Virus record (IMG/VR): IMGVR_UViG_3300043403_000051
Coordinates: 1-64,000 of that record
Source: a virus
Reading direction: 5' to 3' (one strand)
DNA: 64,000 bases
Below, piece after piece: positions 3,817 to 22,614 of the stretch (positions are counted from its first letter, which is position 1; each line of letters opens with the position of its first letter). The notes below the pieces were generated by a model. It was not told the DNA's origin. It made no database searches and saw only the letters and a list, made by a program, of their open reading frames with translations. Both the position numbers and the translations under genes were made by a program.

Positions 3817-3979
3817 ACCTTATTTATTTTTTTTCATACTACCAGGCTTCCTCATAAAGAATTCTCCTTTGGGAGATTTGCTGTTTTTATTATCTACTTT
3901 ATCAGATAGGGTATTCCATTCTGCGATTCGTGCTGCTAATTTTGCAGCAATTTTTTTACCTTGCTTTGCCATATTTTGT

Positions 3980-4357
3980 TTATTTTAATTTTAATTTTTT
4001 AAATTCCTTGTAAAGATAATCAACGGGGTGAGTGTATGCAAAGTTTAAAATTCTCACACTGGAACAATTGTTTTCAAAGTGTGGGTCAATACCATTTTGA
4101 AGTTGTTTTTGTGCAAGTCTTGTCGTAAGATGTGTCATACAAAATTCAAACCAATGAATAGATAAATCTAATACTCCATATTTACCTATTCTTAGTATGT
4201 TATTATTAATCATTTCATCTTCATCAGGGTCTTTAAAATTAACACGACTCGACTTAGAATCAATTCTAAAATAACAAATGTTATAGTCAGGAAACAGTGC
4301 TTTGCACATTTCCAGCAACATTTCTTTTTGCAAAGAAGTCAATGAAAGATTTGTCAT
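3980..4357 (-). CDS. hypothetical phage protein
   Basis: 125-aa ORF with IHWFEFC and HPVDYLY segments. Confidence 0.6.
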   Translation of the reverse strand: MTNLSLTSLQKEMLLEMCKALFPDYNICYFRIDSKSSRVNFKDPDEDEMINNNILRIGKYGVLDLSIHWFEFCMTHLTTRLAQKQLQNGIDPHFENNCSSVRILNFAYTHPVDYLYKEFKKLKLK

Positions 4358-5359: not shown

Positions 5360-5716
5360 TTATATATCACCACCCGCCCAAAAATTTTCTTTGGCTTCTA
5401 TTGCCACATCTTTTAGGATTTCATATAGTTGGGGAATATGCATTAATATATCAATATCCACTTTATATATAAGGTTGTCGGTAAATTGCATGAATGTAAA
5501 TGTAGTTATGTCATTGTTTGTTGACAAACAAACTCTTATTTTCCATTCCGACAGTGTTTTACAGACTACAGCGTGGGTCTTATAAGTATCATCGTATGTA
5601 TATGTTACTTCATCTAACCATTTTGGCTTTTGATGAGGAAGAGTAATTCCATAACTTGCTATATGCTTATCATAGAATTTTTTAACTTGCTCAAAACTTG
5701 CAGGAATTATTTGCAT
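5360..5716 (-). CDS. hypothetical protein
   Basis: 118-aa ORF in operon context. Confidence 0.55.
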   Translation of the reverse strand: MQIIPASFEQVKKFYDKHIASYGITLPHQKPKWLDEVTYTYDDTYKTHAVVCKTLSEWKIRVCLSTNNDITTFTFMQFTDNLIYKVDIDILMHIPQLYEILKDVAIEAKENFWAGGDI

Positions 5717-5739
5717 ATTTATGATTTTAAAGCGTAATA

Positions 5740-6279
5740 CTATGGTTTAACGTATTTAATAATTGCTGACCCCTTAAGATTTCTTCCACCTAATTTTTTT
5801 AGGTACTGACCCGCGCCACTCGCAGGTAAAAAATAAAATATAGCTCCTGATTTCATGGTTGCAATTATATTATCTATCCCCTTAATCATAAGGGCCTCGT
5901 TTTGTATTGGATTATAACTATATAATACATCCCACTCTTTAAAATCATAATCCAACAAGTCTCCTTGAAAAAGCCAATCTGGCTCCAAATTAACATATAA
6001 GTCCTGATATTCAAGACCCATGCTTTTGGCAAATCCCATTATAGACATTATTGTAGGAATTGTTGATGTTCCTGCACCCACATCTAAAAAAGAAAGTGTA
6101 TTAATTTCTTTTAATTTTTGAATTTCTTGTTCCAGCAAGTCTTCTATTGCATTCTCATAAGATGGTATATAATTCCAATAACTTTTATCACTACCCAACT
6201 CTAATTTACGTCCAAGTTTATAGGCTAAACCTTCACGACTTATATCAAGTAATGTTTTGGCAAATAATTTGTAATTCAT
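5740..6279 (-). CDS. SAM-dependent methyltransferase (class I)
   Basis: FLDVGAGT motif I, GLE, GDLL, DVLYSYNP. Confidence 0.75.
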   Translation of the reverse strand: MNYKLFAKTLLDISREGLAYKLGRKLELGSDKSYWNYIPSYENAIEDLLEQEIQKLKEINTLSFLDVGAGTSTIPTIMSIMGFAKSMGLEYQDLYVNLEPDWLFQGDLLDYDFKEWDVLYSYNPIQNEALMIKGIDNIIATMKSGAIFYFLPASGAGQYLKKLGGRNLKGSAIIKYVKP

Positions 6280-16487: not shown

Positions 16488-16520
16488 CTTATTGTTTCCT
16501 CTTATAAAATAAATTAGAAA

Positions 16521-16793
16521 ATGGAGAAATTGAAAAAGATTGATTGTCCAATGCTTGAACTTGAGCAATATAAAAAACTTACAATAGGTGAAATTGAGGA
16601 TGCTATGAAAGAATATCGTAAAGATAATCCTAACACATTCAGGCATCCTATTCATTATAGTGGCCCAGGATATTCATATTGGGATTTTGGTGGCCTTATA
16701 ACAGGAGATGGGGGGAAGATACTTTATGATGAAGCTATGAAAAAGGCGGCTGAAGTTTATTTGGAGAAATTTGGGGAAGCTTATAATAAATAA
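16521..16793 (+). CDS. hypothetical protein
   Basis: ORF after a promoter. Confidence 0.6.
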   Translation: MEKLKKIDCPMLELEQYKKLTIGEIEDAMKEYRKDNPNTFRHPIHYSGPGYSYWDFGGLITGDGGKILYDEAMKKAAEVYLEKFGEAYNK

Positions 16794-16794
16794 A

Positions 16795-16826
16795 TTTGGT
16801 AGTTTCAAAAATTTAACGTATCTTTG
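16795..16826 (+). promoter_or_regulatory. Bacteroidota sigma-type promoter
   Basis: TTTGGTAG...TATCTTTG with 20-nt spacing; ATG 5 nt downstream. Confidence 0.75.
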
Positions 16827-16831
16827 TATTC

Positions 16832-17053
16832 ATGAAGGATGTTATAGAGAATACTTTTTTAGATTTACCTCTTATGAGGAGAGCTATTGTTTATGGTATT
16901 GCTTTGTATGATGAAAAATATGAGTTATTGAAGGTTATTGACCCCCTTATAAAAGAAGATAGGGATGAATTTTTAAAAGCGGCAGAACTCATTAAAGATA
17001 TATGTACACTGTCAGGTGGTGAAATTGGTATACGCGCTGCCTCGTCTCGGTAG
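16832..17053 (+). CDS. hypothetical protein, probably leaderless; 3' end overlaps a tRNA-like RNA
   Basis: ORF starts at the predicted transcription start. Confidence 0.5.
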   Translation: MKDVIENTFLDLPLMRRAIVYGIALYDEKYELLKVIDPLIKEDRDEFLKAAELIKDICTLSGGEIGIRAASSR

Positions 17054-17134
17054 TGCAATTCTTGATAAGGACAGTCATTTAAACATATTGGACGCTTATA
17101 GAGTTGCTTGTAGGTTCGAATCCTACCCTGACAG
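17010..17134 (+). ncRNA. tRNA-like RNA with giant variable arm
   Basis: TGTCAGG/CCTGACA acceptor, Leu-type D-arm TGGTGAAATTGGTATACGC, CTGCC-TCGTCTC-GGTAG, ~55-nt hairpin GCAATTCT...AGAGTTGC, GTAGG-TTCGAAT-CCTAC. Confidence 0.7.
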
Positions 17135-17150
17135 CTTAAAATTATTAATT

Positions 17151-17486
17151 ATGAATGTGGAATTTATAGTACGATTTGATAAAGAATTAACCGCAGAGCA
17201 AAAGAGAGAACGTAAAGAGGCTCAACAATTACATAAAATGGTTAATCCTAATGATTATGAAGGCCCTGTATATGAAAAGGAGTATGAGTACTTGCCTATT
17301 ACATTACCTATTACTGATAAGGTGATTTTTAATGTGTATGATAAAAACCATACAACCGTATATATACCTAAAATAGCAACATATATGCTTAAAATAAAGT
17401 ATGATGATTTTAAACAAGTCTTTGGTATTGCAACAGGAAATCTATTAATTCCAAAAGCTGAAAGCTTAATTCCCCCGACCCCATAA
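17151..17486 (+). CDS. hypothetical protein
   Basis: Likely start MNVEFIVR just after the tRNA-like RNA. Confidence 0.6.
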   Translation: MNVEFIVRFDKELTAEQKRERKEAQQLHKMVNPNDYEGPVYEKEYEYLPITLPITDKVIFNVYDKNHTTVYIPKIATYMLKIKYDDFKQVFGIATGNLLIPKAESLIPPTP

Positions 17487-17514
17487 TTAAATTTGATTAA
17501 TTTCTAAAAATAAA

Positions 17515-17546
17515 TTTGGTAGTTTCAAAAAAGTTACTTACCTTTG
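17515..17546 (+). promoter_or_regulatory. promoter of tRNA operon 1
   Basis: TTTGGTAG...TACCTTTG with 20-nt spacing. Confidence 0.8.
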
Positions 17547-17564
17547 TATTTCAATAAAAGAAAA

Positions 17565-17669
17565 ATGAATTCAAGAACTGTCATAGATAATATTAGAAAC
17601 GCGGAGGGCTGTAAAAAGGCTCTTGTGGGTAATGTATGTTTTTATGACGGAGGTTGCGGATGTAACTAA
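17565..17669 (+). CDS. attenuator leader peptide 1, MNSRTVIDNIRNAEGCKKALVGNVCFYDGGCGCN
   Basis: Short ORF between promoter and terminator; codons 6-19 match the downstream tRNA set. Confidence 0.8.
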   Translation: MNSRTVIDNIRNAEGCKKALVGNVCFYDGGCGCN

Positions 17670-17692
17670 AGACAGATAAAATAAAATATATG

Positions 17693-17732
17693 AACCCCTC
17701 AAGAGCCAAAGCTTCTGAGGGGTTTCTTTTTT
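17693..17732 (+). terminator. attenuator terminator 1
   Basis: AACCCCTCA...TGAGGGGTT followed by TCTTTTTT, directly before tRNA-Lys. Confidence 0.85.
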
Positions 17733-17806
17733 CCCCTTATAGCTCAATTGGTTAGAGTACCAGACTTTTAATCTGGGTGTTCAGAGTTCGAGTCTCTGTG
17801 GGGGGA
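17733..17806 (+). tRNA. tRNA-Lys(TTT)
   Basis: CCAGA-CTTTTAA-TCTGG, TTCGAGT T-loop. Confidence 0.9.
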
Positions 17807-17819
17807 CATAAAATAATAA

Positions 17820-17891
17820 GGGCGTGTGGCCGAGTGATTCAGGTAGTGGTCTGCAACACCATTGACACAGGTTTGAATCCTGTCATGCCCT
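17820..17891 (+). tRNA. tRNA-Cys(GCA)
   Basis: GTGGT-CTGCAAC-ACCAT, U73. Confidence 0.85.
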
Positions 17892-17901
17892 CTTAATATA
17901 T

Positions 17902-17976
17902 GCATCGGTAGCTCAGTTGGTTTAGAGCAGGGTCTTTACACGGCTCTGGTCGGGGGTTCGAATCCCTCTCGATGTA
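17902..17976 (+). tRNA. tRNA-Val(TAC)
   Basis: GGGTC-TTTACAC-GGCTC. Confidence 0.85.
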
Positions 17977-17982
17977 CATTCT

Positions 17983-18053
17983 CCACCTGTCGTTCAATGG
18001 AAGGACAACATGCTTCTAACTTGTTTACAGAGGTTCGACTCCTCTCAGGTGGT
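17983..18053 (+). tRNA. tRNA-Arg(TCT)
   Basis: ACATG-CTTCTAA-CTTGT, CCACCTG/CAGGTGG acceptor. Confidence 0.85.
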
Positions 18054-18072
18054 CTAACAAAATTTTAACAAT

Positions 18073-18405
18073 ATGATTAAGTTTTTATCAGCTATATTTC
18101 TTATCTTTGTAGTTGCTACAATGTCAAAGACAGGAACAGCAAGTTTTTATCACTCTAAGTTCGAAGGTAGGAAAACAGCAAACGGTGAAGTATTTAGAAA
18201 TAATGGGTATACGGCAGCATCAAATCAGTTCAAGCTTGGTGATAGTGTAAGAGTTACTAACCTTGAAAATATGAGGAAAGTAAATGTGAAGATTAATGAT
18301 AGAATGGCTGATGGTATAAGATTGATTGATTTAACACAAAAAGTAGCAAGAGATTTAGGTTACTATAAAAAAGGTATAACAAAAGTAAAAGTAGAAAAAA
18401 TATAA
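18073..18405 (+). CDS. RlpA-like double-psi beta-barrel protein (lytic transglycosylase family)
   Basis: Signal-like N-terminus, GTASFY, TANGE, TAA, VRVTN, VKINDR, IDL. Confidence 0.85.
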   Translation: MIKFLSAIFLIFVVATMSKTGTASFYHSKFEGRKTANGEVFRNNGYTAASNQFKLGDSVRVTNLENMRKVNVKINDRMADGIRLIDLTQKVARDLGYYKKGITKVKVEKI

Positions 18406-18411
18406 ATAAAT

Positions 18412-18483
18412 TCCCCTTTAGCTCAACGGAAGAGCAACACCCTGTTAAGGTGAAGGTTGAGATATCGTAATTCTCAGGGGGAG
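18412..18483 (+). tRNA. tRNA-Asn(GTT)
   Basis: CACC-CTGTTAA-GGTG, G73. Confidence 0.85.
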
Positions 18484-18490
18484 CATATAT

Positions 18491-18563
18491 TGTGGGGTGC
18501 AAGTAATGGTAACTGGTCGGTCTCATAAGCCGTACGATAATGGTTCGACTCCATTCTCCGCAA
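18491..18563 (+). tRNA. tRNA-Met(CAT) (Met or Ile2 identity not resolved)
   Basis: CGGT-CTCATAA-GCCG, TTCGACT T-loop. Confidence 0.8.
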
Positions 18564-18627
18564 CAGAAACGCTTTATATCTCGGCTCGTATATAAAGGGA
18601 AGATTCTTGAAATAAACGGGCCCTCAC

Positions 18628-18701
18628 GCAGTATACGCATAATTGGTGGTGCATCTTCCTTCCACGTAGAAATAGAGTCGGTTCGATTCCGACATACTGC
18701 T
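18628..18701 (+). tRNA. tRNA-Gly(TCC)
   Basis: GCAGTAT/ATACTGC acceptor, CTTCCAC loop, U73. Confidence 0.8.
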
Positions 18702-18745
18702 CAGGGGGTTTTATCAGTTTCCCGTGACAAAAAAACTGGTGTTAT

Positions 18746-18821
18746 ATCCCTGTTGACAAAATTGGAGTAAGTCCCTTCCCTTTCAAGGAAGTTATTGCGA
18801 GTTCGAGCCTCGTCGGGGATA
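18746..18821 (+). tRNA. tRNA-Glu(TTC)
   Basis: CTTCC-CTTTCAA-GGAAG. Confidence 0.85.
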
Positions 18822-18826
18822 CAGTA

Positions 18827-18917
18827 AAAGTAGTTGGCGTAATTGGGAATGAATACCAACAATAGTTAACGCCCTATATCAGTATAGGAGATGCGGGTGG
18901 AAGTCCTGTACTACTTT
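18827..18917 (+). ncRNA. degenerate tRNA-like element
   Basis: AAAGTAGT/ACTACTTT acceptor, GCGT..ACGC D-stem with enlarged loop, CCTATA-TCAG-TATAGG, GCGGG-TGGAAGT-CCTGT. Confidence 0.5.
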
Positions 18918-18924
18918 AACATAC

Positions 18925-18998
18925 GGAATTGCAGCATATTTGGCGTATGCAACTCACTGTCTATGAGTTGATTGCGGGTTCGAGTCCCGTCTTTTCCG
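18925..18998 (+). tRNA. tRNA-Asp(GTC)
   Basis: ACTCA-CTGTCTA-TGAGT, G73; two acceptor-stem mismatches. Confidence 0.8.
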
Positions 18999-19068
18999 CA
19001 GTAGTTTGGGAAACGAAGGCATGTAAAACTGAAAAGTGTCTACTCAAACAGCCCTTAACGGGGCATCT

Positions 19069-19141
19069 GCTTTCTTAGCTCAACGGTGAGAGCAGGACGC
19101 TTATATCGTCAAGGTTACAGGTTCGAATCCTGTAGGAAGTA
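19069..19141 (+). tRNA. tRNA-Ile(TAT)
   Basis: GACG-CTTATAT-CGTC. Confidence 0.85.
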
Positions 19142-19146
19142 CATAT

Positions 19147-19220
19147 TGAGATGTAGCTCAATTGGTGAGAGCATATGACTGATACTCATAAGGTTGAAGG
19201 TTCGACCCCTTTCATCTCAA
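19147..19220 (+). tRNA. tRNA-Ile(GAT)
   Basis: TATGA-CTGATAC-TCATA. Confidence 0.85.
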
Positions 19221-19225
19221 CACAC

Positions 19226-19299
19226 GGGGCAATAGTTTAAGCGGCTTAAAACAATTGATTTGCAATCAGTAGTTCCGATTTCGAGTATCGGTGGCTCCA
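19226..19299 (+). tRNA. tRNA-Ala(TGC)
   Basis: ATTGA-TTTGCAA-TCAGT, G3:U70 pair. Confidence 0.85.
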
Positions 19300-19313
19300 C
19301 ACAAAGAACAACA

Positions 19314-19793
19314 ATGGACAAATATTTTAAAACTGAGACTGGTAAAATAGTTGATATAATAGAATACACGGCCCAACAAATAAAAGACAATCCCTCTGTT
19401 AAGATATACATAGGTGCTGATAGCCAAGTCTACGGCCCTAAGATTAAGTTTATCTTAGCTATTGTATATAGGGTTGGTAATAGGGGTGGGCACTGTATTC
19501 ATAAGCTTATAAAGACTGAAAGACCACCCAAAGGGATTCCTGATGAAATTCAGGTTAATAACAGGCTTACAGAGGAAGTTTACTTAACTATGGAGCTTGC
19601 CCAATATTTTATTGATAATAGTTCTTTTAAACTGGAGGCAGTTGAATTTGACTTTAATCAAGAGGAAAGTTACCTAAGTAACAAGCTAATAAACTTATCA
19701 ACAGGTTGGGCTAAAGGACTTGGTTTTAAAGCACGTACTAAGCCTGATGAACTGATAGCTTGCAAGTATGCAGACCATCTCGTAAGATTTTAA
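19314..19793 (+). CDS. RNase H-like YkuK (DUF458) family protein
   Basis: IYIGADSQ, GGH, RL.EEV, KPD..IA...AD; start MDKYFK. Confidence 0.75.
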   Translation: MDKYFKTETGKIVDIIEYTAQQIKDNPSVKIYIGADSQVYGPKIKFILAIVYRVGNRGGHCIHKLIKTERPPKGIPDEIQVNNRLTEEVYLTMELAQYFIDNSSFKLEAVEFDFNQEESYLSNKLINLSTGWAKGLGFKARTKPDELIACKYADHLVRF

Positions 19794-19795
19794 TT

Positions 19796-20392
19796 ATGAT
19801 TGTAATATATAAAATAGAAAATCCAAAAGGTAAAGTTTATATTGGTCAAACCAAAAGACTTATTCAAAGAAAGTCTGCTTACAAAAATTTAAGATGTAAG
19901 AAACAAAGAAAACTTTATAGTTCTTTAAATAAATATGGTTGGGAAAATCATACACTTTGTGTTTTACATGAGTTACCTGATGATATAGAGCAAAGAGTAG
20001 TAGATGATTATGAAATTTTTTACTATGAACAATTTATTGCTTGTGGATTTGAAATGCTAAACCTAAAAACATGCGGAAACGGCGGAGGATTACACTCGGA
20101 GGAAACAAAGAGATTGATAGGAAAACAAAGTAAGGAAAGATTTAAAGCTAAATCTGGAATGAAAATAGCTCAGGTAAATCTTAATTTGGAAATTATTAAT
20201 TTTTGGGAGAACGGTTATACACTACAACAAGAAAGAAAGTATTACAATATATCAAGAAAATGCAGAGAATTTCCAAGTATAGCTTATGGATATTTTTGGT
20301 TATACGAAAAAGATTTACATAAATTAACGCAAATAGACAAGCTTAAAATAAAAAAAGACGGGAATGGTGTTTATAGTTATTTCAAAATGTAA
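19796..20392 (+). CDS. GIY-YIG homing endonuclease with NUMOD-type C-terminus
   Basis: VIYKIEN..KVYIGQT, LN...GG, HSEETKRLIG, AYGYFW. Confidence 0.85.
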   Translation: MIVIYKIENPKGKVYIGQTKRLIQRKSAYKNLRCKKQRKLYSSLNKYGWENHTLCVLHELPDDIEQRVVDDYEIFYYEQFIACGFEMLNLKTCGNGGGLHSEETKRLIGKQSKERFKAKSGMKIAQVNLNLEIINFWENGYTLQQERKYYNISRKCREFPSIAYGYFWLYEKDLHKLTQIDKLKIKKDGNGVYSYFKM

Positions 20393-20431
20393 TAATCTCT
20401 GTAGAGTTTAGTAATTCATTAACATTATTTA

Positions 20432-20463
20432 TTTGGTAGATTAAAAAAAGATTTATACCTTTG
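20432..20463 (+). promoter_or_regulatory. promoter of tRNA operon 2
   Basis: TTTGGTAG...TACCTTTG with 20-nt spacing. Confidence 0.8.
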
Positions 20464-20469
20464 TATCCC

Positions 20470-20547
20470 ATGAAGAATTTCAACACATATTATAGTCTCT
20501 CATTGTTATCCAGCCTAACGGGTCGGGAGCTAAAGGTATGGGTATAA
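20470..20547 (+). CDS. attenuator leader peptide 2, MKNFNTYYSLSLLSSLTGRELKVWV
   Basis: YYSLSLLSSL run upstream of Leu/Leu/Ser/Ser/Tyr tRNAs. Confidence 0.85.
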   Translation: MKNFNTYYSLSLLSSLTGRELKVWV

Positions 20548-20576
20548 TAAAGATAAACTCTTAAATCAAAACATAT

Positions 20577-20604
20577 AAAAAAGCTCCCTATTGGGGGCTT
20601 TTTT
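20577..20604 (+). terminator. attenuator terminator 2
   Basis: AAGCTCCC-TATT-GGGGGCTT followed by TTTT. Confidence 0.85.
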
Positions 20605-20611
20605 AGTTTAT

Positions 20612-20684
20612 GGCTCTATGACGTAATTGGAAACCGTCTTGGCTTTAGAACCCAAGTTTCCGAGTTCGAGTCTCGGTAGAGCTA
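20612..20684 (+). tRNA. tRNA-Leu(TAG), short variable loop
   Basis: TTGG..TTTAGAA..CCAA, A73. Confidence 0.8.
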
Positions 20685-20687
20685 CAT

Positions 20688-20760
20688 GCCTTTGTGATGA
20701 AACGGAATACATGTCAGACTTAAAATCTGAATTTTACGGGTTCGACTCCCGTCAGAGGTA
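20688..20760 (+). tRNA. tRNA-Leu(TAA), short variable loop
   Basis: TCAGA-CTTAAAA-TCTGA, A73. Confidence 0.85.
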
Positions 20761-20765
20761 CATTT

Positions 20766-20850
20766 GGAAGCACGTAAAGTTGGCGTACTTATCCGTCTTG
20801 AAAACGGTGAAGAGGTAACACTTGTGCAGGTTCGACCCCTGCTGTTTCCG
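20766..20850 (+). tRNA. tRNA-Ser(TGA)
   Basis: CCGT-CTTGAAA-ACGG, long variable arm, G73. Confidence 0.85.
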
Positions 20851-20853
20851 CAT

Positions 20854-20937
20854 AGAGAGGTGACTGAATGGTAAGGTACTGGTTTGCTAAACCAGGGTCA
20901 GATAAAACTGGAGTGGGTTCGATACCCATCCTCTCTG
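20854..20937 (+). tRNA. tRNA-Ser(GCT)
   Basis: CTGGT-TTGCTAA-ACCAG, long variable arm. Confidence 0.85.
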
Positions 20938-20998
20938 CTAAAGGGTTCCTGTATCAGGCAAAATATAACCCCCGTTGTGGTATAGGAATCGTTTATTT

Positions 20999-21083
20999 GA
21001 GATAGCTGTCGTGATGGAGGAACGGCACTGGTCTGTAAAACCAGCACTATGAAACACAGTAGGTTCGAATCCCACCTATCTCA
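20999..21083 (+). tRNA. tRNA-Tyr(GTA)
   Basis: CTGGT-CTGTAAA-ACCAG, long variable region. Confidence 0.85.
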
Positions 21084-21109
21084 CATTAACAATTAATTTT
21101 AATTATTTA

Positions 21110-21141
21110 TTTGGTAGTTAGATAAAAAGATACTACCTTTG
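21110..21141 (+). promoter_or_regulatory. promoter of tRNA operon 3
   Basis: TTTGGTAG...TACCTTTG with 20-nt spacing. Confidence 0.8.
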
Positions 21142-21145
21142 CTTT

Positions 21146-21226
21146 ATGAATGTAACACGTACACATACGCAACAGTTTTGGTTCCCTACAAGGGCTGGGC
21201 TTGGTATGTGTGATAATAGAGGATAA
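21146..21226 (+). CDS. attenuator leader peptide 3, MNVTRTHTQQFWFPTRAGLGMCDNRG
   Basis: TRTHTQQFWFPTR run upstream of Pro/Thr/Phe/Gln/His/Arg/Trp tRNAs. Confidence 0.85.
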   Translation: MNVTRTHTQQFWFPTRAGLGMCDNRG

Positions 21227-21250
21227 ATTCCCCCAAACACTCACTCATTG

Positions 21251-21288
21251 AAAAGCCCAGGACATAAAATCCTGGGTTTTTTATTTTT
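21251..21288 (+). terminator. attenuator terminator 3
   Basis: AAAAGCCCAGGA-CATAAAA-TCCTGGGTTTT followed by TTATTTTT. Confidence 0.85.
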
Positions 21289-21291
21289 AAT

Positions 21292-21365
21292 CGGGATGTG
21301 GACTAATGGCAAGTCACTTACTTTGGGAGTAAGGCATCATGGAGGTTCGAGTCCTCTCATCCCGA
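21292..21365 (+). tRNA. tRNA-Pro(TGG)
   Basis: CTTAC-TTTGGGA-GTAAG. Confidence 0.9.
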
Positions 21366-21370
21366 CATTT

Positions 21371-21442
21371 GCCTCGTAAGCATATATGGTGATGCAGCGC
21401 ACTTGTAATGCGCAGAATAGGTTTCGAGTACCTAACTTGGCT
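21371..21442 (+). tRNA. tRNA-Thr(TGT)
   Basis: GCGCA-CTTGTAA-TGCGC. Confidence 0.85.
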
Positions 21443-21449
21443 CAGTAAT

Positions 21450-21521
21450 GGAGATATAGCTCAGTTGGAAGAGCAACGGATTGAAGCCCCGTGAGCACCA
21501 GTTCGACTCTGGTTATCTCCA
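21450..21521 (+). tRNA. tRNA-Phe(GAA)
   Basis: ACGG..TTGAAGC..CCGT, GGAGATA/TATCTCC acceptor. Confidence 0.85.
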
Positions 21522-21528
21522 CATATAT

Positions 21529-21599
21529 TCCCATTTGGCGTAACGGAAGCGTAGGACTCTTTGAAAGTCTTGGAAATTGTTCGATTCAATTAATGGGAG
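21529..21599 (+). tRNA. tRNA-Gln(TTG)
   Basis: GGACT-CTTTGAA-AGTCT. Confidence 0.85.
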
Positions 21600-21604
21600 C
21601 ACAC

Positions 21605-21676
21605 GGGTTTATTGATGTAATGGAAGCATGGCAGTTTGTGAAGCTGCTCGTATGGGTTCGAACCCCATATCTACCC
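21605..21676 (+). tRNA. tRNA-His(GTG)
   Basis: GCAGT-TTGTGAA-GCTGC, G-1:C73. Confidence 0.85.
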
Positions 21677-21681
21677 CTTTT

Positions 21682-21753
21682 ATCCTCTTAGCATAATGGA
21701 AGTGCAGCAAGCTACGAACTTGCGTTGTGTGAGTTCGAGTCTCATGGAGGATT
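21682..21753 (+). tRNA. tRNA-Arg(ACG)
   Basis: GCAAG-CTACGAA-CTTGC. Confidence 0.85.
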
Positions 21754-21765
21754 CTTTTTATAACT

Positions 21766-21835
21766 GCGTATGCCTAAAGGAGTAGTAAGCGGTCTCCAAA
21801 ACCGTGATTTATCAGTTCGAGTCTGGTCATGCGTG
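21766..21835 (+). tRNA. tRNA-Trp(CCA)
   Basis: GCGGT-CTCCAAA-ACCGT; weak D-arm. Confidence 0.8.
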
Positions 21836-21846
21836 CTTAAATAGTA

Positions 21847-21896
21847 TACCCAAGTTAATTATTTGTTAAAAGTAATTGATTTGGGTTATTTTTTTT
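21847..21896 (+). terminator. terminator closing the tRNA region
   Basis: ACCCAAGTTAATTA/TAATTGATTTGGGT stem followed by a T-tract. Confidence 0.7.
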
Positions 21897-21925
21897 GGTA
21901 GTGTCATAAATTCTTGTTATTTTTG
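21894..21925 (+). promoter_or_regulatory. promoter of the packaging/virion block
   Basis: TTTGGTAG...TATTTTTG with 20-nt spacing. Confidence 0.7.
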
Positions 21926-21940
21926 TATAAATTAATTACT

Positions 21941-22294
21941 GTGAGCAACCAAATACCTTTTATAAAGATTTCAAAGAACACAGACTCTAAAATAGAGATG
22001 GTTAAAAAGATTGTTTCTATCTATTGTGTGTTGTCTGATATTAAACTTTCTGAAACTGATATTATAGTTGTTTCATATTTCATTCTATATGGAATCAATG
22101 AAAAAACTAAAAAATTAATTATTGATAGCAAACTCCTTAATAGTGATAGTATCAAAAATACAATGTCAAAATTAAGAAAAGCAGGTATAATTAAAAAATC
22201 AGAATTCAGGAGAAAAGAAGATTATCTAAATGAAAACTTAAACATACCAATTAATAAAGTTGTTGGATTAATGATTAAAATAGATAACTCCTAA
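21941..22294 (+). CDS. putative winged-helix DNA-binding protein
   Basis: SIKNTMSKLRKAGIIKK; start uncertain (GTG 21941). Confidence 0.5.
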   Translation: MSNQIPFIKISKNTDSKIEMVKKIVSIYCVLSDIKLSETDIIVVSYFILYGINEKTKKLIIDSKLLNSDSIKNTMSKLRKAGIIKKSEFRRKEDYLNENLNIPINKVVGLMIKIDNS

Positions 22295-22614
22295 TGAAAA
22301 ATATAGATTATGTAACCAAGAAAGTAGCAAAAGAACTACAACTTAATGAAGACATTGTATCGAAAATTTATTATGATTTTTATTGGAAGAATGTAGTATT
22401 TCCAAAAATAAAATCTTTTGAGTATACGGCAATAACATTACCAAAGCTTGGTACATTATATCTATCATACTATAAACTAAGAAAAGAAATAACAGACATA
22501 ATATTTAGACTTAGACGAGTTAGAGATAATGACACACTTACAGATGGAAAAAGAAAACAATTAGATGACCATTATGTAAATTATCTTAGAAAATTATTAT
22601 TACGTAGAAACTAA
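22294..22614 (+). CDS. HU/IHF-like protein
   Basis: KKVAKELQL...AITLPKLGTL; typical position upstream of TerL in crAss-like phages. Confidence 0.5.
   Translation: MKNIDYVTKKVAKELQLNEDIVSKIYYDFYWKNVVFPKIKSFEYTAITLPKLGTLYLSYYKLRKEITDIIFRLRRVRDNDTLTDGKRKQLDDHYVNYLRKLLLRRN

Follow-up and report, generated by a model that had tools for sequence, protein, structure and literature searches.

A likely leader-peptide attenuator ahead of five transfer RNA genes in a phage genome

We identified a candidate transcription attenuator in the IMG/VR virus record IMGVR_UViG_3300043403_000051, an 83,054-base record whose first 64,000 nucleotides (nt) form the stretch analysed here (the window). The element, at positions 20470–20604, is part of a region at 17.5–21.9 kb that encodes 24 transfer RNA (tRNA) genes under relaxed ARAGORN settings, plus a tRNA-like call at 18827–18918. 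It lies between a GIY-YIG-like gene (19796–20392; 22.2 bits, slightly under the Pfam cut-off of 22.6) and a tRNA-Leu(UAG) gene, and is the middle of three like units in the phage record. Features of the unit, all on the + strand, include a promoter, a short open reading frame (ORF) rich in Tyr, Ser and Leu codons, and an intrinsic terminator with an alternative pairing partner upstream. On computational evidence throughout, we consider it likely that this unit is a ribosome-mediated (leader-peptide) transcription attenuator that gates five phage tRNA genes.

The unit begins with a Bacteroidetes-type promoter (20432–20463), in which a −33 TTTG motif (20432–20435) is separated by a 20-nt spacer from the −7 box TACCTTTG (20456–20463). 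We counted five occurrences of the composite motif TTTGGTAG-N18-22-TTTG in the window, always on the + strand, versus 0.15 expected, and three of the five precede the three tRNA units. By itself, the −7 box is not enriched in the window (106 matches versus 112 expected). No + strand TANNTTTG box was found within 20464–20611, and the five tRNAs have no other promoter. For Flavobacterium, the sigma-A −7 box, TAnnTTTG, is reported at −12 to −5 (PMC9723704). Only 6 nt separate the box from the leader ATG, and the predicted transcript start falls 0–2 nt 5′ of that ATG. The box-to-ATG spacer is 4 nt in the third unit of the window, 7 nt in each of units 2 and 3 of the related phage Lbo-JY46, 4 nt, 5 nt and 4 nt in the related viral stretches L027, L023 and L034, and 18 nt in both unit-1 leaders. 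With such short spacers, the leader mRNAs of units 2 and 3 would be leaderless or nearly so.

The leader ORF (20470–20547) starts with the ATG at 20470, contains 25 codons (MKNFNTYYSLSLLSSLTGRELKVWV) and ends with a TAA at 20545–20547. After the codons ATG AAG AAT TTC AAC ACA, it enters a run of ten in-frame codons (20488–20517) that specify Tyr, Ser and Leu exclusively, namely TAT TAT AGT CTC TCA TTG TTA TCC AGC CTA; nine further codons separate the run from the TAA. A Tyr/Ser/Leu leader had been proposed here by the first-pass annotation, and every coordinate given for it was verified. Sorted by downstream tRNA, the run holds two codons for each: TAT TAT (Tyr-GUA), AGT/AGC (Ser-GCU), CTC/CTA (Leu-UAG), TCA/TCC (Ser-UGA) and TTG/TTA (Leu-UAA). 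Two codons per box would arise with a probability of 0.0073 if ten codons were drawn from these boxes, for a pattern that was spotted post hoc. The boxes of the five tRNAs comprise 14 codons and account for 0.199 of the codons in the 36 long ORFs of the window. Among 563 ATG ORFs of 15–45 codons in the six frames of the window, the longest run drawn from these boxes is that of the leader ORF (10 codons; runner-up 7).

All four Ser and all four Leu codons of the run differ from one another, with a probability of 0.090 × 0.057 = 0.0052 under the codon usage of the window's long ORFs. Two of them are rare in the window: CTC represents 2.5% of Leu codons and TCC 2.9% of Ser codons. The earlier emphasis on eight different Ser and Leu codons holds for the window but does not extend to relatives, in which AGT (Lbo-JY46), TTA (phage record G001) or CTC (L027) is repeated. 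What is conserved instead is the sampling of all five boxes (CTN, TTR, TCN, AGY and TAY), which is seen in six of six leaders that head a Leu block.

Five tRNA genes on the + strand follow the terminator: tRNA-Leu(UAG) (20612–20685; Rfam 47.1 bits), tRNA-Leu(UAA) (20688–20761; Rfam 58.3 bits), a non-canonical, low-scoring tRNA-Ser(UGA) (20766–20851), tRNA-Ser(GCU) (20854–20938; Rfam 51.2 bits) and tRNA-Tyr(GUA) (20999–21084; 23.8 bits to RF00005, below the gathering score of 29). Default ARAGORN calls all of these except tRNA-Ser(UGA), which is found under relaxed settings only and scores 33.1 bits to the Rfam tRNA-Sec model (gathering score 47). The tRNA-Ser(UGA) gene has a plausible cloverleaf by inspection, and a counterpart occupies the same place in Lbo-JY46 (relaxed ARAGORN) and in G001 (by inspection). 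These genes had been described as class II tRNAs (Leu twice, Ser twice, Tyr), a description that is right about the amino acids and wrong about the shape of both Leu tRNAs, which are 74 nt long with a short, 5-nt variable loop and thus are not class II in shape. Both Leu tRNAs likewise measure 74–75 nt, with a 5-nt variable loop and A73, in the window (20612–20761), in Lbo-JY46 (L001, 5274–5426) and in G001 (L019, 5229–5383). In the viral stretches L030 and L034, an identical anticodon arm belongs to a 90-nt tRNA that has the usual long arm. Judging from these sequences, the long variable arm of the Leu tRNAs seems to have been lost in the window's lineage.

The intrinsic terminator (20576–20604) consists of a 5′ arm extending to 20588 (core AGCTCCC, 20582–20588), a TATT loop, a 3′ arm of sequence GGGGGCT (20593–20599) and a T run (20599–20604). 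It has a predicted energy of −17.5 kcal/mol, is separated from the leader TAA by a 28-nt A/T-rich spacer and ends 7 nt upstream of the first tRNA. Region 2 (20525–20540), which contains GGGAGCT (20525–20531) and GTATG (20536–20540), has two possible partners. One is region 1 (20486–20501), which overlaps the codon run and forms the 5′ strand of a protector (anti-antiterminator) in minimum-free-energy (MFE) folds. The other is the terminator 5′ arm, in an antiterminator. The full-length MFE structure (−33.5 kcal/mol, z −2.73; none of 200 shuffles as stable) contains the terminator together with the protector (20483–20543, −13.0 kcal/mol), including the imperfect protector pairing that the first-pass annotation had suggested. 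The competing 2:3 antiterminator helix (−16.1 kcal/mol) pairs 20525–20531 with 20582–20588, which are exact complements as previously claimed, and 20536–20540 with 20572–20576.

We folded transcripts ending before the terminator 3′ arm, with the ribosome represented by masking from the 5′ end to 12 nt beyond the A-site codon. With the A site at codons 2–14, 12 nt of the terminator 5′ arm are paired upstream; this falls to 10 nt at codon 15, to 5 nt at codons 16–18 and to none at codon 20 and beyond, including the stop codon. By these counts, nine of the ten run codons (codons 7–15) lie in the zone where a stall favours read-through. The same stall-dependent pattern was found in 12 of 12 units folded. 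The earlier identification of an attenuator agrees with our analysis: each component of a leader-peptide attenuator can be recognised, the protector as a candidate, and the masked-ribosome folds change with ribosome position as such a switch should.

The energy gained by pairing of the terminator arm was also compared with 300 mononucleotide shuffles per unit. For the unit at 20470–20604 the gain is −8.2 kcal/mol, versus −1.4 ± 1.6 in shuffles, and a single shuffle reaches it. The corresponding numbers of shuffles reaching the observed gain are 8, 1 and 0 for units 1, 2 and 3 of the window, 31, 2 and 0 for those of Lbo-JY46, 0, 1 and 5 for those of G001, and 0, 0 and 18 for L027, L023 and L034; overall, 9 of 12 units have at most 5. 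Among relatives, the antiterminator and terminator arms vary in sequence and keep their complementarity. A three-sequence DNA alignment misaligns the terminators, and folds of the individual sequences were used in its place.

These features suggest the following mechanism. Host RNA polymerase would start 0–2 nt before the AUG at the Bacteroidetes-type promoter, and a ribosome would load on the nascent 5′ end. If the ten Tyr, Ser and Leu codons are read without delay, the ribosome would reach the stop codon and cover region 2, the terminator hairpin (3:4) would form, and transcription would stop 7 nt before tRNA-Leu. If any codon of the run is decoded slowly, the ribosome would sit on region 1 and leave region 2 free to pair with the terminator 5′ arm, and polymerase would continue into the Leu-UAG, Leu-UAA, Ser-UGA, Ser-GCU and Tyr-GUA genes. 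The phage thus probably makes these tRNAs only when decoding of the Tyr, Ser and Leu codons is slow. The products would be the tRNAs that read the sensor codons, so that the supply for each codon box would be under negative feedback. We infer regulated read-through, with tRNA (depleted, for example, by host tRNA cleavage or by dilution during infection) and not amino acid as the limiting quantity.

The two sister units in the window have the same architecture. Unit 1 (17515–17732, + strand) consists of a promoter, a 34-codon leader (17565–17669), an antiterminator and a terminator, and heads the tRNAs for Lys, Cys, Val, Arg(UCU), Asn, Met, Gly, Glu, Asp, Ile(UAU), Ile(GAU) and Ala. Its leader contains a run of 14 codons from its own tRNA set, and that set covers 28 of 33 leader codons. 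Unit 3 (21110–21291, + strand) consists of a promoter, a 26-codon leader (21146–21226) with an own-set run of 12 codons, an antiterminator and a terminator, and heads Pro, Thr, Phe, Gln, His, Arg(ACG) and Trp. The tRNA sets of the three units partition the 61 sense codons into 28, 14 and 19. When each leader is scored against each set, the longest runs are 14, 10 and 12 codons for matching pairs and at most 7 for mismatched ones, and each of the 23 non-Met tRNA boxes in the three blocks is represented by a codon of the leader that heads its block. No terminator lies between the unit-2 tRNAs and the unit-3 promoter, so read-through from unit 2 would run into the unit-3 attenuator.

We identified relatives of the unit with a leader-independent anchor, the 19-nt anticodon arm of tRNA-Leu(UAA), which retrieved 16 viral stretches. 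Nine of these have leaders of this kind (L018, L023, L025, L026, L027, L030, L031, L033 and L034, with shared sequences in L025 and L027 and in L030 and L033), and seven lack one (L020, L021, L022, L024, L028, L029 and L032). The first-pass annotation had pointed to homologues as the place to look for loss of the Ser/Leu/Tyr run; the run is kept in six of six distinct Leu-headed units (the window, Lbo-JY46, G001, L027, L023 and L034). In the merged blocks of L026, L030 and L031, Leu codons, or Leu and Ser codons, are mixed with Pro, Gln, His and Arg codons, matching the merged tRNA sets.

The Leptolyngbya phage Lbo-JY46 (L001, PP438436.1), a cultured isolate, is 72.4% identical over 42% of the query and has all three leaders. 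Its unit-2 leader starts MKNFNTYYSLSLSLS. Relative to the window, changes in the run are synonymous or are Ser/Leu swaps, while the peptide tail differs at most positions; Lbo-JY46 also has A for G in region 2 and T for C in the terminator arm. G001 (L019), a complete 155-kb IMG/VR record found via the tRNA-Leu(UAA) sequence, has a unit-2 leader that starts MKKLYTYYSLSLLSL. The antiterminator and terminator arms of G001 have a quite different sequence and retain their mutual pairing. We also observed that the Pro/Thr/Cys unit of G001 (L019, 749–826) has two tandem small ORFs, the first of which (MKAVEKLYGCGCGKPKPVVVKPPSR) lies 4 nt past the −7 box and precedes the actual leader.

Contigs from three freshwater runs represent a strain about 98% identical to the window, with 19 differing letters and two gaps over 901 bases. 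In this strain 20470–20524 is unchanged (about 1.3 changes expected in these 55 bases). The following segment, 20525–20547, has four changes, of which one is synonymous and three replace amino acids: Val to Ile, Trp to Cys, and Arg to Gln, the last of which also costs an antiterminator pair. The spacer at 20555–20580 has 11 changes, and one T is inserted in the terminator loop. This comparison, suggestive only, points to constraint on the run and region 1 (codons and RNA) and not on the peptide product.

Across units, leader codons follow the tRNA sets that the leaders head. We defined 20 units by position: each required a terminator no more than 60 nt from a tRNA, together with an ORF whose end falls 40–80 nt upstream of that tRNA. 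Three terminator-headed blocks without an ORF by this rule were dropped (L023:5620, L023:10047 and L004:7697), and one unit whose set the rule reduced to Ala alone (L023:5493) was retained and scored 1. With tRNAs called by relaxed ARAGORN, own-set runs sum to 170, versus 83.2 ± 12.8 (maximum 150) when sets are permuted, and none of 50,000 permutations reaches the observed sum. Similarly, of the 144 downstream tRNA boxes, 138 are represented in the leader of their own unit, versus 89.0 ± 7.7 after reshuffling, and none of 20,000 reshufflings reaches 138. A first permutation test with default ARAGORN was weaker (18 units, sum 101 versus 56.6 ± 8.3, reached by 1 of 20,000) and was redone with relaxed settings because the default calls missed several tRNAs.

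Rearranged blocks show the same correspondence. In G001, tRNA-Cys is found in the Pro/Thr/Phe/Trp/Gln/His/Arg block, whose leader includes four Cys codons; Cys codons are absent from the Lys/Val/Arg/Asn leader, M-I(ATA)-V-R(AGA)-N-I(ATT)-L-G-A-D-E-K. In L026 and L030 the Pro/Gln/His/Arg block is fused with the Leu/Ser block, and the leaders combine precisely those codons. The match extends to isoacceptors. In nine of nine units with a single Arg isoacceptor (5 CGN, 4 AGR), the first Arg codon of the leader belongs to the box of that isoacceptor. In the window's long ORFs, AGR makes up 0.70 of the Arg codons. Counting all Arg codons of these leaders, 13 of 15 match, and both exceptions are in the tail of the window's unit-3 leader. 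The Arg boxes (9/9) and the five boxes sampled by Leu-headed leaders (6/6) lend indirect support to the earlier proposal that isoacceptors rather than amino acids are probed.

These correspondences argue against an attenuator that senses only general translation capacity or amino-acid supply, in which codon identity and the isoacceptor link would have no functional meaning. Such a sensor would not explain why leader composition tracks the tRNA set through rearrangements (the 0/50,000 and 0/20,000 results), why Cys codons accompany tRNA-Cys in G001, or why the Arg box is that of the unit's own isoacceptor in 9/9 units. It would account for two other observations: the masked folds give the antiterminator for any slow-down with the A site at codons 2–14, including the non-cognate codons 2–6, and Lbo-JY46 retains Tyr and AGY codons for which it has no matching tRNA gene. 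On balance we regard this explanation as unlikely.

Somewhat less likely again is a functional small peptide encoded by the ORF, with the hairpin acting as a leaky, unregulated terminator and the tRNAs arising from constitutive read-through. The ORF is indeed kept as an ORF in relatives such as Lbo-JY46 and G001 and has an intrinsic terminator behind it, but the Ser/Leu swaps in the run and the free divergence of the tail (window, ~98% strain and Lbo-JY46) are unlike a functional peptide. One genome moreover encodes three different peptides, each spelling its own tRNA set, and the antiterminator complementarity is kept despite sequence change and beats shuffles. We give the least credence to an RNA-only element (a 5′ processing or stability hairpin, or a T-box-like tRNA-binding leader) with an incidental ORF whose Ser and Leu codons arise as a by-product of pairing by a pyrimidine-rich strand. 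In its favour, codons for Leu and Ser are rich in U and C and the run pairs with purine-rich region 2, so that coding and structure are entangled. Against it, no T-box or other cis-regulatory family matches at threshold, a by-product would not explain the TAT and AGY codons, the runs of units 1 and 3 are not pyrimidine-rich and still match their own tRNA sets, and every run is in the frame of an ATG placed 4–7 nt past a −7 box.

A ribosome-mediated attenuator is the interpretation we prefer, and several observations weigh against it. The first concerns translation of the leader. Leaderless mRNAs are rare in Bacteroidetes, at a reported 5.5% of mRNAs in F. psychrophilum (PMC9723704) and about 3.7% in B. 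thetaiotaomicron (PMC7366714), and translation of the leader ORF is thus an assumption. We infer that the leader is translated; the near-leaderless start is an unusual trait that recurs consistently among the units, and it is also the weakest link of the argument. The second concerns energetics. When each state is forced, the terminated form is more stable than the antiterminated one (−33.5 versus −26.5 kcal/mol), so antitermination must be kinetic. The MFE structure of the truncated transcript in the absence of a ribosome is the antiterminator (2:3) and not the protector, so the classical default, in which no translation leads to termination, is not assured. The third concerns decoding. Under strict wobble rules the phage tRNAs read eight of the ten run codons, since CTC and TCC require four-way reading by U34, and the strict run is three codons. 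The fourth is that the unit-2 leader of Lbo-JY46 retains two TAT and two AGT codons, whereas the tRNAs of its block are limited to two Leu species and Ser(UGA), and no Tyr or Ser(GCU) tRNA occurs among the 21 RF00005 matches of that genome. The tRNA loss in Lbo-JY46 looks recent, with the leader yet to follow. Finally, the units are phylogenetically related, and the permutation counts consequently overstate their independence.

A more specific proposal, which we advance tentatively, is closed-loop control of each tRNA block at single-isoacceptor resolution, with the leader serving as a meter that samples every served codon box. If so, the meter described here would hold two codons per tRNA, among them C-ending codons that are rare and poorly read by U34 tRNAs. 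Should any one tRNA species be lost, for example through a host anticodon nuclease or tRNA turnover in infection, the replacement genes would be turned on. Jointly, the three meters would span all 61 sense codons.

Several further features of the tRNA region were observed in the window. A gene for a PF04308 protein (RNaseH_like, 61.8 bits) lies inside the tRNA array of three related phages (window, 19314–19793; Lbo-JY46, L001 4592–5071; G001, L019 ~3886–4320), and the encoded protein may act on tRNA precursors. The tRNA-like call at 18827–18918 is a 92-nt 'Val(aac)' reported by relaxed ARAGORN between tRNA-Glu and tRNA-Asp. The spacers at 18565–18627 and 19000–19068 are long for a tRNA array. 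Another tRNA-like element, at 17000–17130, has a 5′ acceptor strand and D arm, followed by an 8-bp stem capped by a 7-nt loop; roughly 50 nt of inserted sequence separate this stem from a canonical T arm and 3′ acceptor strand. It overlaps the end of an ORF (16832–17053) and is called neither by Rfam (E ≤ 1) nor by relaxed ARAGORN. Unit 3 is closed after tRNA-Trp by a 17-bp A/T-rich hairpin with a T run (21848–21886).

Two observations concern Lbo-JY46. At 5431–5810 of this phage, the portion corresponding to Ser(GCU)-Tyr is replaced by a promoter and a 74-codon gene (5580–5804). The record names a cyanobacterial host, yet the tRNA units carry Bacteroidetes-type TTTG-N20-TAnnTTTG promoters like those of the window. 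The host assignment or the promoter reading merits checking, and the L031-type leader is also present on a contig (L040) of a Cyclobacteriaceae metagenome-assembled genome (MAG).

Sixteen stretches of genome contigs were also retrieved, and the region upstream of the array was inspected in five (L036, L039, L040, L044 and L050). The Cyclobacteriaceae MAG contig has the same leader as L031. No matching leader ORF was seen in the three Pyrinomonadaceae (Acidobacteriota) MAG arrays inspected (L036, L039 and L050), and none in L044. Upstream of the three Pyrinomonadaceae arrays, each of about 30 tRNAs, lies a conserved, structured segment some 150 nt long that ends in a long hairpin and T run adjoining the first tRNA. 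This upstream region may be a different type of gate on a cellular tRNA array.

Other searches added no relatives. An exact 26-nt stretch of tRNA-Leu(UAG) matched no stretch in viral contigs, and a 36-nt stretch of tRNA-Leu(UAA) matched none in metagenome contigs. Searches for related loci with the RNaseH-like and DPBB proteins of the array gave pattern matches and no confirmed relative. A 21-nt stretch of the unit-2 promoter matched 16 stretches in viral contigs, none of them a unit-2 homologue (nine in coding sequence, seven at promoters of other phages); these 16 were left out of all leader counts.

Phage tRNA genes are usually seen as passengers with constitutive expression, whose role is to adapt codon usage or to make good the tRNAs that host defences cleave (PMC11464382, PMC12409363), and control of their expression is rarely addressed. 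We found no account of leader-peptide attenuation of tRNA genes in the papers searched, which did not include subscription journals or supplements; the candidate leaders and small ORFs listed in PMC9723704 (Table S7 and SI Appendix D9) and PMC7366714 (Supplementary Data 3) could bear on novelty. If our interpretation is correct, a phage gauges decoding speed per codon box and tops up only what is short, and leader-peptide attenuation extends from amino-acid metabolism to the tRNA pool itself. The unit would then be a natural, compact sensor of isoacceptor supply and would offer a direct test of whether phage tRNAs answer immunity directed at tRNAs. A bench test is feasible, as the relative Lbo-JY46 is a cultured isolate.

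Searches against known leader families place the unit outside them. Among the Rfam leader families for Leu, His, Thr, Trp and Phe, the sole match is Phe_leader at 25.0 bits (gathering score 55, E 0.7), over the terminator (20546–20607), and the T-box model has no match at E ≤ 1 within 16500–22500. Classical attenuators act on genes for amino-acid biosynthesis, amino-acid transport or aminoacyl-tRNA synthetases. The regulated genes here are five tRNA genes, and we thus assign the unit to no named leader family.

By analogy, the proposed mechanism appears closest to the multivalent leader-peptide attenuators of enterobacteria, such as the ilvGMEDA leader (Ile, Val and Leu codons) and the thr leader (Thr and Ile codons). 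Like these, the phage unit has a short ORF with mixed regulatory codons, predicted alternative pairings (2:3 and 3:4, with 1:2 as a candidate) and an intrinsic terminator before the regulated genes, and the position of the ribosome would decide the outcome. Unlike these, it would regulate tRNA genes instead of biosynthetic enzymes, the codons of its run come from the boxes that the downstream isoacceptors read (two per isoacceptor in the window), and it is a phage element with a (near-)leaderless start behind a Bacteroidetes-type promoter. T-box riboswitches also read tRNA status and switch between terminator and antiterminator, before genes of the tRNA charging pathway. In the phage unit, tRNA status would likewise gate a terminator/antiterminator switch, whereas a T-box contacts the tRNA itself by way of a specifier codon and lacks an ORF.

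For its physiological logic, the closest published parallel that we found is the trn operon of Anabaena sp. PCC 7120, an accessory tRNA array on a megaplasmid that is long, silent by default and induced by impaired translation (PMC8421152, PMC10272220). The words 'leader' and 'attenuat' are absent from these two texts, which describe control at the promoter through direct repeats and a repressor, on a cellular megaplasmid and not a phage. At the level of phylum, the closest setting is that of Flavobacterium psychrophilum, where signs of leader-peptide attenuation are reported upstream of amino-acid operons (PMC9723704). Common to both cases are the transcription and translation setting of the phylum (TAnnTTTG promoters and the lack of a Shine-Dalgarno sequence) and the presumed mechanism; the targets described in F. 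psychrophilum are amino-acid biosynthesis operons.

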